Part shown: positions 54,044 through 58,714 of the stretch, in pieces
How positions within the stretch are numbered: position 1 is the stretch's first letter
Layout of the letters: each line of letters begins with the position of its first letter
Origin: Escherichia phage nataliec
Length of the DNA: 64,000 nucleotides
Strand: one strand, 5' to 3'
Sequence record: MN850611.1
Notes under the pieces: model-generated
Databases searched by the model: none
Seen by the model: only the letters and a program-made list of their open reading frames with translations
Told to the model about the DNA's origin: nothing
Made by a program: the position numbers and the translations under genes

Positions 54044-55240
54044 ATGAACAAAGTACAGATTATTAAAAAGAATGGCTCACTTGAAGAACCTGATATCAAA
54101 AAAGTTTTAGCAGCAGTAACTAAGTCAGCTAACAGGGTTGGATATAAAGAACTCCCACCAGATGTTACCCAAGCTCTTGAGTCAGCATTTATGAGGATTC
54201 TGGTAAAGTCCACTAAGCAGAATAATTTACTCATCTCAGTCAATGATATTCACAGCATTGTTGAGGGTGCTTTGGCAGAAGTCAATCACGAGATTTATGA
54301 GTCTTACTCAACATATAGAAATTACCGGAAAGAGGTTGCTCAAAATTGGGATGAGCTTTACCAAAAGACTAGAGACACGCTCTTCTTAGGTGACCGTGAA
54401 AATGCTAACTTTGACAGCAGTTTAATTTCTACGAAAGGTTCAATTATCCGTGGTTACCTGACTAAAGAAATCTTTAAACAGTATCATCTAACACCAGAGG
54501 AACTTGAAGCCATTGAGAAAGGCTTTATCTATATCCATGATTTAAGAGACCTGATTTTTGGTGGTATTAACTGTTGCCTGTTTGACATTGGTAAAGTACT
54601 AAAAGGTGGCTTTGAAATGTCCGGCATTGAGTACTGTGAACCTAAATCTGTACTGTCAGCGTTGCAGGTTATTGGTGACGTAGTACTTTCAGCAACTGCA
54701 CAGCAATTTGGTGGTTTTACTTTAGCAGAGATTGATAAGGTACTTGTACCGTATGCTAAGAAGTCTCTACGCTATCATGCTGAGAAAGCAGCATCTTATG
54801 GTATTCCTAAAGAACATTACCACAATTATGTCATGGAGCAGCTACAGATTGAACTGACTCAAGGTTTCCAGTCACTTGAAATGAAACTAAACACTGTACC
54901 TTGTAGCCGTGGGGATTTTGCATTCACAACTTTGACATTCGGGTTACTTGACTCAGATATGTCCAATGAAGATAACCGACTGCAATATATGATTGCAAGT
55001 ACCCTCCTAGATGTTCGTATGAATGGTCAAGGTAAGAGCAAGAAACCTGTTGTATTCCCTAAACTGGTTTATATTTATGACCAGAAGAGACATGATGAAA
55101 ATATCTGTCAAAGTCACCTGTACAGTAAAGCTATTGAGTGTTGCTCTAAAGCAATGTATCCAGACTTCTTAAGTGTATCTGGTCATGGTGCTGTAGCAGA
55201 GGCTTTTGAGCGTTCTGGTAAGGTTATTTCACCGATGGGT
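54044..55240 (+). CDS. nrdD: anaerobic ribonucleotide reductase (class III) large subunit, exon 1
   Basis: N-terminal ATP-cone; reading frame continues into exon 2 at 55983 if intron 55241-55982 is removed. Confidence 0.7.
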
Positions 55241-55982
55241 TAACAAGCTCTATAGCTCATCTAAAACGTGCCTAAACAGGGAAACTCTACAGATGTAGAC
55301 AATCCTGTGCTAAATGATGTACGATGTAAGAAACTATACAACATAGGAGTCTTACATGCCAAACTATCACGTCACTGAAGATGGAAAAGTCTTTAGGGAA
55401 AATGGTGTAGAGCTTACGCAGTGGAAATCCAACACTGGGTATATGAAAGTGAGGTTTTACGGTAAGAAGAATCGTGACATGTATGTCCACAGGTTAGTTG
55501 CTGAGAAATATGTACCTAACCCGAACAATCTTCCAATTGTAAAACATAAGGACGATAACAAACTAAATAACCACGTATCTAACTTAGAATGGGGTACTCA
55601 TTCTGAGAATGCTAAAGAAGGTTATGAGAATGGATGTTACAAGTTCCACAAGCGTTCATATGCCGTGAAAGCCACACACAAAGTGACAAAGGAAGTTATT
55701 GTTACTAAGTCAATACGAGAGTTATCCAATATACTTGGATACAATCGCAAGACCATCTCTTCAATATTGAAGGGTGTAAAAGAGCATAATAACTTCGAAT
55801 ATGAGTTTGAATACATCTAAATGCCGAACGACTAACCGTGATGAATGTAGCGGTGTAGGGTCAAGCGACTCGAAATGGTACGCTACTTAGAAATAAGTAG
55901 AAGATATAGTCTGGACTTACTGGCGACAGTAAGCAGCTTGAATAAAGCGGGGTAAGCTTAGCGAACTTACCTGAACAATAAG
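55241..55982 (+). mobile_element. group I intron in nrdD carrying an HNH endonuclease ORF
   Basis: conserved P7-type element 'agatatagtc' at 55902-55911; 3' end '...tgaacaataag'; 5' exon ends in T; splicing restores frame; HNH ORF inside. Confidence 0.6.
55356..55820 (+). CDS. HNH homing endonuclease (intron-encoded)
   Basis: 'VHRLVAEKYVPNP...HKDDNKLNNHVSNLEWGTHSEN' HNH_3-type motif. Confidence 0.7.
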   Translation: MPNYHVTEDGKVFRENGVELTQWKSNTGYMKVRFYGKKNRDMYVHRLVAEKYVPNPNNLPIVKHKDDNKLNNHVSNLEWGTHSENAKEGYENGCYKFHKRSYAVKATHKVTKEVIVTKSIRELSNILGYNRKTISSILKGVKEHNNFEYEFEYI

Positions 55983-56930
55983 TGTAGAGCATTTTTATCA
56001 CCATACCATAACGAATATGGTGAAGAGTTTTATGTAGGTCGTGCTAATATTGGTGCTGTATCTTTGAACTTACCAATGATTTACCAGTATTCTAAAGAGA
56101 ATGGTTTAGATTTCTGGAAAGAGCTTGATAAGTACCTAGAAATGATTCGCAGCTTCCACAAGAAACGTTACGAAATGATTGCTAATATGCCAGCAAGTTC
56201 TAACCCTCTTGCATTTACACAAGGTGGTCTGTATAAAGGAACTAAGAAGCCTACTGACAGGGTTGGTTGGGATATTGTGAAGTCATTCACAGCTTCTTTT
56301 GGGGTTACTGCGCTTGATGAACTATCTGTTCTTGCTGAAGGTAAACGACTTCATGAAGTTGGAAGCTATAGTTTTGCATACGATGTTCTGGCGTACATCA
56401 ACATGAAAACTGAAGAGTTTAAAAATGAAGATGGTTTCTTATATGCAGTCTATGGCACTCCAGCAGAATCACTTTGTGGAACTCAGCTAAAACAGTTCAG
56501 AGATATGTTTGGCGTTATCAAAGGTGTTTCTGATAAAGAATACTTTACAAATAGTTTCCATATGAATGTTGCAGCAGACATTACACCATTTGAGAAGCAG
56601 AACTTAGAAGAACCCTTCTTCCATATCTGTAGAGGCGGCAGAATCCAGTATGTAAGGGTAGCTAACCCAGAAAACTTACCAGCACTTAAAAGTTGTATTA
56701 CAAGAGGGATGTTGAAAGGTTTCTATCAGGGACTTAACTTTGACTTAGCAATCTGTGAACATTGTGGTAACAGACCAAAGGCTGATGTTGAAGAATGTGA
56801 GGTTTGTCATTCACACGATATCTCTGTGATTAACAGGGTGTGCGGATATTTGGGATGGACTAAGATTAAAGGTGAATCCCGAATGAATGATGCAAAAATC
56901 GCTGAGATTCGTGACAGAATTTCTATGTAA
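55983..56930 (+). CDS. nrdD: anaerobic ribonucleotide reductase large subunit, exon 2
   Basis: glycyl-radical motif 'RVCGYLG', Zn ribbon 'CEHCGN...CEVCH'; in-frame sequence open from 55962 upstream of track start (TTG 56064). Confidence 0.7.
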   Translation, partial: CRAFLSPYHNEYGEEFYVGRANIGAVSLNLPMIYQYSKENGLDFWKELDKYLEMIRSFHKKRYEMIANMPASSNPLAFTQGGLYKGTKKPTDRVGWDIVKSFTASFGVTALDELSVLAEGKRLHEVGSYSFAYDVLAYINMKTEEFKNEDGFLYAVYGTPAESLCGTQLKQFRDMFGVIKGVSDKEYFTNSFHMNVAADITPFEKQNLEEPFFHICRGGRIQYVRVANPENLPALKSCITRGMLKGFYQGLNFDLAICEHCGNRPKADVEECEVCHSHDISVINRVCGYLGWTKIKGESRMNDAKIAEIRDRISM

Positions 56931-58228: not shown

Positions 58229-58714
58229 ATGAATTACATGGAGATTAGACCATTTGACACAGCTAATGGTGAAGGGGTTCGTGTAAGCCTCTTCGTAGCT
58301 GGCTGTAAACATCACTGTGAAGGCTGCTTTAACAGGGAGTCTTGGAAGTTTAATGCTGGTAAAGTATTTACTTATGCAAACCTCTACGGCATCATTAAGT
58401 TAATGGATGATGAGGCCATCAGTGGGTTGTCAATACTTGGTGGGGAGCCTCTGGATGATAGAAACATTCAAGAGGTCACCAACATATGCAAACGTATTAA
58501 AACTGTTTATCCAGAAAAGTCTATATGGCTTTGGACAGGTTTTCAACTGCACGAAAAAATCCACTTAGATGTGATGAAATATGTTGACGTGGTGATTGAT
58601 GGTAAGTATGATTCGTCTAAACCAACAGTTAAACCATATCGTGGTTCTGATAACCAAAACCTCTGGAGAAAAGAGTATGGATGGCAAGGCGATTGTCAAT
58701 GGCGAGCAGAATGA
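58229..58714 (+). CDS. nrdG: anaerobic RNR activating enzyme (radical SAM)
   Basis: 'CKHHCEGCFN' CxxxCxxC cluster motif; ~160 aa. Confidence 0.8.
   Translation: MNYMEIRPFDTANGEGVRVSLFVAGCKHHCEGCFNRESWKFNAGKVFTYANLYGIIKLMDDEAISGLSILGGEPLDDRNIQEVTNICKRIKTVYPEKSIWLWTGFQLHEKIHLDVMKYVDVVIDGKYDSSKPTVKPYRGSDNQNLWRKEYGWQGDCQWRAE

Follow-up and report, generated by a model that had tools for sequence, protein, structure and literature searches.

The anaerobic ribonucleotide reductase gene nrdD of Escherichia phage nataliec is interrupted by an insert of 742 nucleotides (nt), located at positions 55241-55982 of a 64,000-nt stretch of sequence record MN850611.1 (the window). With a probability of about 0.9, this insert represents a group I intron of the T4 IA2 type that is mobile and self-splicing and carries a gene for an I-HmuI-like HNH homing endonuclease in its P6a loop. 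We infer the mechanism with high confidence from the anatomy of the insert, its covariation and its population patterns. The phage belongs to the genus Felixounavirus (Felix O1-like myophages), and dozens of records of Escherichia and Salmonella felixounaviruses match this region with 94-100% identity. The open reading frames (ORFs) named in the original prediction, which had been made from the letters of the window alone (54044-55243, 55356-55820 and an open frame reaching 56930), agree with the sequence and the ORF list. The host gene and the insert are arranged as follows.

54044-55240 and 55983-56930, + strand: nrdD, in two parts around the 742-nt insert 55241-55982.
54044-55240, + strand: nrdD exon 1, 399 codons; ATP-cone and N-terminal half of the class III ribonucleotide reductase (RNR), C-terminal end ...ISPMG (ORF list, Pfam).
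55241-55982, + strand: predicted group I intron (IA2-like), 742 nt; starts with UAA (in-frame stop), last base G 55982.
55983-56930, + strand: nrdD exon 2, 315 codons and stop; NRDD profile positions 264-560 and Gly_radical (Pfam).

The first nrdD ORF extends from 54044 to 55243 and ends in a TAA stop at 55241-55243. The NRDD profile of Pfam is divided between the two halves of the gene, with positions 1-250 matched in the first and 264-560 in the second. Deletion of 55241-55982 produced a single frame encoding an NrdD of 714 amino acids (aa), in which NRDD was matched once, over profile positions 1-560 of 562, with 381.5 bits. Exon 1 is collinear with the uninterrupted NrdD of Felixounavirus LMP33, and the joined protein is 98% identical to it over 714 aa without gaps; the original prediction had proposed a comparison of this kind as a check, and the outcome bore it out. 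The collinearity of the joined NrdD with its uninterrupted relative is far beyond chance. The joined junction reads ...ISPMG|CRAFLSPYHNEYG... (CRAFLSPY), the predicted spliced RNA junction is ...CCGATGGGT|TGTAGAGCA, and the predicted junction-spanning peptide is ..VISPMGCRAFLSPYH... That removal of the insert restores the frame had been foreseen, but one of the residues then quoted was wrong (CRAFL, not CRAFF).

The first codon of exon 2 is that of Cys400, in the PMGCR motif; further on, the exon encodes a Cys-rich CEHCG...CEVCH segment and, near the NrdD C-terminus, the glycyl-radical motif RVCGYLG. The PMGCR motif of the window NrdD aligns with SPMGCR of T4, and its cysteine (Cys400) is the residue that we take to carry the thiyl radical. 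The position of this residue bears on a different explanation, in which a free-standing endonuclease cassette split nrdD and each half is translated on its own, the two products combining to form an active enzyme. Such an arrangement has a reported precedent in Aeromonas phage Aeh1, whose nrdA is split by mobE and yields an active enzyme of two polypeptides, and most GenBank records of the present region list two separate nrdD coding sequences (CDSs) and an endonuclease. However, the exon-2 frame opens at 55962, and its first start codon is a TTG at 56064, without a ribosome-binding site and 27 codons past Cys400. The C-terminal protein would lack residues 400-426, and exon 1 ends just before Cys400. 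Since neither separate product contains Cys400, a two-polypeptide enzyme is unlikely, and the chance that nrdD is split in this way is very slim.

The boundaries of the insert are those expected of a group I intron. Exon 1 ends in T 55240, and the insert in ...TGAACAATAAG with G at 55982; both features were part of the original prediction and were found in place. Two pairings link the intron to its exons.

55235-55260, + strand: P1, exon AUGGGU 55235-55240 with guide GCUCAU 55255-55260, 6 bp, read from the sequence.
55248-55254, + strand: P10 5' strand CUCUAUA, pairing with the exon 2 start UGUAGAG 55983-55989 in 7/7 pairs.

In P1, U 55240 at the splice site is paired to G 55255, and P1 was paired in 87.5% of cells in an alignment of eight related introns. 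The guide GCUCAU is also that of the nrdD introns of T4, Mosigvirus KAW3E185, Vequintavirus navn and Vibrio phage F100. The P10 strand of F100 is AUUGGCA, which matches the F100 exon UGCCGAU, indicating that P10 follows each intron's own 3' exon. The splice-site rules of group I introns (U-G in P1, a terminal G and P10) are satisfied only at the boundaries 55241-55982; shifting these by the ambiguous T would leave an intron ending in T. The same boundaries bear on an intein, or another protein-level intervening sequence with an HNH domain. Phage RNR genes commonly contain inteins at active-site residues, but the insert has a length of 3n+1, begins with an in-frame TAA and contains 26 in-frame stops, and its HNH ORF lies in a frame different from that of nrdD, with a start codon and a ribosome-binding site of its own. 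The intein was rejected outright on frame and stop codons.

The non-coding parts of the insert are homologous (BLAST) to the introns of T4 nrdD (sunY), T4 td and KAW3E185 nrdD, and further homologues were found in navn, in F100, in an Aeromonas phage terminase gene and in phiKZ-like phages. The predicted core lies on both sides of the intron ORF.

55267-55310, + strand: core 5' half; P3 5' strand 55267-55272, P4 55276-55281/55303-55308, P5 55286-55290/55295-55299, P6 5' strand 55309-55310.
55316-55321, + strand: P6a 5' strand GAUGUA, pairing with UACAUC 55812-55817, within the last ORF codons.
55356-55820, + strand: intron ORF, 154 aa, putative I-HmuI-like HNH homing endonuclease (HNH_3, PDB 1U3E).
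55823-55982, + strand: core 3' half; P6' 55823-55824, P7 55830-55834/55907-55911, P7.1 55835-55838/55851-55854, P7.2 55858-55862/55867-55871, P3' 55877-55882, P8 55883-55889/55894-55900, P9 55916-55922/55927-55933, P9.1 55936-55939/55945-55948, P9.2 55951-55956/55966-55971, terminal G 55982.

The P3/P7 pseudoknot and P7.1/P7.2 are present in the insert, and the P7-type sequence AGATATAGTC stands at 55902-55911, where it had been reported. P7.1 and P7.2 define subgroup IA. Because the insert has both elements and is homologous to the td and sunY introns, its subgroup is taken to be the T4 IA2 type.

Covariation was evaluated in the eight introns, aligned after removal of their ORFs, for a structure comprising P1, P10 and P3-P9.2 with P7 as a pseudoknot. 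Two-sided (compensatory) changes occurred in 43/76 pairs, and none of 500 shuffles matched the observed covariation values. P3 was 100% paired with five of its six pairs compensated, and P4 was 100% paired with 2/6 compensated. Pairing reached 100% in P7.2 and P8, 98% in P9, 97% in P7.1, 92% in P9.2 and 72% in P9.1, with compensatory changes in all six of these helices; P7 was invariant and had none. Overall, 91.8% of cells were paired versus 35-41% when the 3' partners were slid by 1-3 columns, a comparison somewhat favourable to the structure in that it was drawn on the window sequence. Among six Felixounavirus copies, 12 non-ORF positions varied, of which 10 are unpaired and two change P9.2 pairs to G-U, with no pair broken. 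These results support the identification of the insert as a group I intron, which was the central claim of the original prediction; besides the covariation, it is borne out by the splice-site rules and by an ORF-less relative that scores above the Rfam cut-off. They also speak against the splitting of nrdD by a bare endonuclease cassette, since the flanks of the ORF would then not be expected to form a conserved, covarying group I core whose P1 and P10 are matched to these very exons.

The Rfam search proposed in the original prediction had a mixed outcome. At the gathering score (50 bits), a scan of the window found no Intron_gpI match, only 24 tRNAs; the lack of a group I match had been named in the original prediction as an outcome that would refute it. 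A permissive scan of 55150-56100 gave RF00028 with 33.1 bits over the 3' half (E 1.8e-6, or 1.2e-4 for the whole window) and a second partial match on P4-P6 at 55276-55359; the alignment of P8, J8/7, P7' and P9 had a high posterior probability. Permissive scanning of the whole window revealed no second group I intron. The phage EC6 has an ORF-less allele with a clean in-frame internal ORF deletion of 426 nt, which leaves 316 nt with two mismatches to the window, and this allele matched RF00028 with 53.6 bits (E 1.1e-12). With EC6 as a natural control, the 465-nt ORF that interrupts P6a appears to account for the shortfall of the window copy, which would be a false negative.

The ORF is located in the P6a loop, its last codons providing the P6a 3' strand; at the equivalent place, the introns of T4 nrdD and KAW3E185 are free of an ORF and P6a is a short hairpin. 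The HNH assignment of the original prediction was upheld, HNH_3 being matched with 41.2 bits versus a cut-off of 24.8 (Pfam). The product aligns over its full length with I-HmuI (PDB 1U3E), residues 3-153 against 12-170 (E 5.6e-9), and the His, Asn and Asn of its HNH motif align with H75, N87 and N96 of I-HmuI. The ORF was intact in the four ORF-bearing copies compared (4/4). The endonuclease family is very widespread in phages, with 987 records at E < 1e-10.

Beside the favourable slid-partner comparison, several points weigh against the intron with its endonuclease gene, in whole or in part. The window copy is below the Rfam cut-off, and the passing score comes from a relative, EC6. No P2 helix was apparent in the insert, and the Rfam 5' helices were unmatched. 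In the endonuclease, a Lys is aligned to Asp74 of I-HmuI (numbering from the alignment). Asp74 is a metal ligand in I-HmuI, and catalytic competence of the intron endonuclease is therefore only putative. NUMOD1 was matched with 17.6 bits, below its cut-off of 22.8, and the I-HmuI alignment reaches residue 153/154; the NUMOD1-like helix-turn-helix at the C-terminus is putative. Upstream of the ORF, a hairpin is predicted.

55324-55357, + strand: predicted hairpin covering the first two bases of AGGAG (55345-55349) and of the start codon.

The RNA fold of 55313-55375 has -12.4 kcal/mol and z = -2.2, marginally better than shuffled sequences, which weakly suggests that the hairpin may mask translation of the intron ORF. 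In the literature searched, no splicing or endonuclease-activity experiment on the element was found.

The low score of the window copy would also fit a dead or crippled intron that does not splice, with nrdD being a tolerated pseudogene because the aerobic NrdAB suffices; the class Ia RNR genes lie just upstream. However, both exons are open, and the spliced CDS is intact in 6/6 intron-bearing alleles under strong purifying selection, with a ratio of nonsynonymous to synonymous polymorphism (pN/pS) of 0.063 at pS ~0.25. On these grounds, the intron-bearing nrdD genes are not decaying. No core pair is broken among the six intron copies, and P7, J8/7 and the other elements of the catalytic core are identical or compensated relative to T4 td and nrdD. 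The gene of the activating enzyme is also intact.

58229-58714, + strand: nrdG (NrdD activating enzyme), intact; Pfam Fer4_12 147 bits, Radical_SAM.

In Felixounavirus pinkbiff, an 'organic radical activating enzyme' is annotated at the place equivalent to nrdG. The intact nrdG is context showing that the pathway is kept. A dead intron is accordingly very unlikely, although less so than separately translated halves.

The distribution of alleles points to a mobile intron. With the spliced junction as query, this part of nrdD was found in ~242 phage records, of which ~60 have the full 742-nt insert, ~93 at least the core (leaving ~33 that are ORF-less) and ~150 are uninterrupted; RefSeq and GenBank duplicates are counted among them. 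The intron-less records have a clean junction at the insertion site. The ORF was lost at least twice independently, by the 426-nt deletion in EC6 and by a different deletion of ~445-450 nt in RPN213, and the ORF-less alleles retain a core of 290-316 nt. Alleles of this kind would be left unexplained if nrdD had merely been split by a bare endonuclease cassette.

The exons were compared between the spliced CDSs of six intron-bearing and five intron-less Felixounaviruses, and one tract stood out.

55994-56036, + strand: exon tract travelling with the intron (co-conversion or cleavage-site tract), spliced-CDS positions 1209-1251.

All six fixed differences between intron-bearing and intron-less alleles (6/6) fall within this tract, 12-54 nt downstream of the site. 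Divergence between the groups was 18.9% in CDS 1201-1260 versus 2-11% elsewhere; among themselves, the intron-bearing alleles differed by 0.9% in CDS 1141-1200 and by 3.1% in CDS 1201-1260. Homing with co-conversion would be expected to leave such a tract, as would cleavage-site immunity. A presence/absence polymorphism at one site is thus accompanied by a co-conversion signature in the flanking exon, as in a mobile intron.

Two UNVERIFIED 'Campylobacter phage' entries were also noted. The nrdD of A138 (MG065684, L011) is near-identical to that of a coliphage Vequintavirus, and the nrdD of A126 (MG065668) is near-identical to that of a Felixounavirus, with an ORF-less intron. Both records look mislabelled or contaminated.

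For the mobile, self-splicing intron, the following course of events is proposed. A single pre-mRNA would be transcribed from nrdD, and the P3-P9 core would fold, with GCUCAU and AUGGGU forming P1 and CUCUAUA and the exon 2 start forming P10, pairings for which the covariation argues. Guanosine-initiated transesterification would then excise 55241-55982 and join GGU|UGU, as the collinearity of the product suggests, and joining would restore the PMG-CR active-site loop and the 714-aa NrdD. The intron ORF would be translated from its own ribosome-binding site, perhaps partly masked by the hairpin. During mixed infection, the endonuclease would cut or nick intron-less nrdD close to the insertion site, and repair from the intron-bearing genome would copy the intron along with ~55 nt of the downstream exon. 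This homing step is deduced from the presence/absence polymorphism and the co-conversion tract. Once unneeded, the endonuclease gene would decay, as the two independent ORF deletions in relatives suggest.

The closest known systems are the T4 introns, to which the original prediction had rightly likened the element and which are of the same intron family. The T4 nrdD (sunY) intron, which encodes I-TevII, interrupts the same gene and has 77-82% identity to the window intron in the core over P1-P9, an identical guide GCUCAU, P7.1/P7.2, and a P9.2 and 3' tail of the same type. Its GIY-YIG ORF, however, is in P9.1, downstream of the core, whereas the HNH ORF of the window is in the P6a loop. The insertion sites also differ, a refinement of the original prediction: the T4 intron follows nt 538 (..AYE|Y..), whereas the window site corresponds to T4 nt 867 (..PMG|CR..), ~119 codons downstream. 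The T4 boundaries were confirmed by recovery of the intact 605-codon CDS, and identity of the two sites was rejected. The T4 td intron, which encodes I-TevI, has an IA2-type core with 71-82% identity to that of the window, and 71% over the whole 3' half including P9.1/P9.2. Like the window intron, it has its ORF in the P6a loop and begins with UAA directly after ..GGGU, but it interrupts a thymidylate synthase gene, has another guide sequence, contains P2 and encodes a GIY-YIG enzyme. The T4 td and nrdD introns self-splice. The contrast drawn earlier between the HNH enzyme of the window and the GIY-YIG enzymes of T4 holds for td and nrdD, but I-TevIII of the T4 nrdB intron is an HNH enzyme.

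The endonuclease itself is most readily compared with I-HmuI, an HNH nicking enzyme encoded in the DNA polymerase intron of Bacillus phage SPO1. Both are hosted by a phage group I intron, are of similar length (154 versus 174 aa) and have the HNH His/Asn/Asn, and the likeness extends to the putative C-terminal helix-turn-helix region. In contrast, identity is only ~30%, the target gene and host are different, and Asp74 is replaced by Lys in the window ORF.

Introns at the same position were found in navn, in F100 and in a gut Firmicutes phage-like contig (JBGVLZ010000048). All three follow the same ..MG codon before Cys-Arg and have a homologous core with an HNH ORF in the P6a loop. Their ORFs are, however, only 40-53% identical to that of the window, and those of navn and F100 end in ..EMPND* (..RMSND* in the gut contig) with the stop inside a P7 strand, whereas the stop of the window ORF comes five codons earlier. 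No description of the navn, F100 and gut-contig introns was found in the literature searched. Since a homologous intron with an HNH ORF occupies the same codon in these three, the element appears to cross between unrelated phages at a conserved active-site sequence. Within Felixounavirus, the insert is 94-100% identical in pinkbiff, Tribble, Alf5, UAB_Phi87 and JohannRWettstein, so that the window holds another copy of the same element.

Several features of these relatives were observed in passing. In the gut contig (L023:1300-3400, minus strand; Eubacteriales metagenome-assembled genome [MAG]), GCCCAU is the guide and GGC the exon end, which would put a C-G pair at the splice site, where U-G is near-universal. 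The nrdD genes of navn (L009:684-991, 1247-1996) and F100 (L005:725-1883, 2391-3205) are each interrupted twice, the second interruption being the cysteine-site intron. The first insert follows ..NTLTSVNG in navn, where it has a group I-like core, and carries a 309-aa HNH ORF in F100. Both genes are annotated as 3-4 separate fragments. In KAW3E185 (L006:1954-4805), GenBank leaves the whole nrdD unannotated. The gene has an intron of the sunY type at the T4 site, and the P7.1 region of this intron shares 98% identity with its Felixounavirus counterpart; an intron ORF of 256 aa is annotated only as 'hypothetical protein'.

A scan of the genome collection with a 24-nt core motif gave four matches, none of them above the Rfam cut-off, since each has an ORF or a variant periphery. 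Three bacterial contigs (L021, L022 and L024: Clostridia MAGs and Anaerovibrio slackiae NZ_VUNR01000013) contain the 24-nt P7/P7.1 motif without mismatch. These contigs, which are probably prophages, have introns of this family in another gene, after ..QFQLG in two and ..QFQMG in one, and two of the introns have GIY-YIG-like ORFs.

The origin of the cysteine-site introns was also considered. Those of Felixounavirus, Vequintavirus and Vibrio phages may descend from an nrdD intron of the T4 sunY type. That intron would have reached a second site in the gene by means of its own guide, for example by reverse splicing, and would later have replaced its GIY-YIG gene in P9.1 by one for an I-HmuI-like HNH enzyme in P6a. 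The same guide is found in the introns at the cysteine site (window, navn, F100) and in those at the T4 site (T4, KAW3E185), and each of the two insertion sites coincides with one of the only two ATGRGT hexamers of T4 nrdD, at nt 533-538 and 862-867. At the T4-equivalent site, the Felix sequence is not compatible with the guide. The hexamer pattern is equally expected from selection for splicing competence after any ectopic insertion, and such a derivation is regarded as unlikely. If true, it would be a natural, sequence-documented case in which a guide directed the move of an intron to another site and the endonuclease gene was then exchanged.

The sequence of the element and its annotation were already on record. 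The Felix O1 genome paper reported no introns. Two Salmonella-phage papers, among them that on UAB_Phi87 ('split nrdD interrupted by a homing endonuclease'), mention a split gene or inserted homing endonucleases and nothing further, and the rV5 and CB7 papers concern other genes. For JohannRWettstein of the BASEL collection, the nrdD CDS is joined across the insert, and the paper counts one intron for this Felixounavirus; among the sources searched, the BASEL collection alone does so for its phage. The paper on phage SPJ41, also a Felixounavirus, lists 'two introns' among non-coding RNAs (PMC9951933). As the window gave one RF00028 signal versus these two, a second intron may be present elsewhere in some members of the genus.

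Apart from nrdD, the window contains 24 tRNA genes at 869-6210 on the + strand, an array typical of Felix O1-like phages. The tRNA at 3195-3282 also weakly matches tRNA-Sec, with 39 bits versus a cut-off of 47 bits.

For annotation, the finding means that nrdD should be given as one joined CDS encoding the complete enzyme, whereas most public records and NCBI names list two fragments and a homing endonuclease. It also means that Rfam at the default threshold misses the intron whenever the ORF is present. The element is real but ordinary, and current understanding is unchanged by it; its practical value lies in correct annotation and in a natural allele series for homing experiments. The genus shows the empty site, the intron with its ORF and two independent ORF deletions side by side, which would be convenient for crosses. 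The element would be one more mobile intron adjoining the codon of a catalytic residue in an RNR gene, and the conserved recognition sequence at this site would let it cross between Felix O1-like, rV5-like, Vibrio and gut Firmicutes phages.

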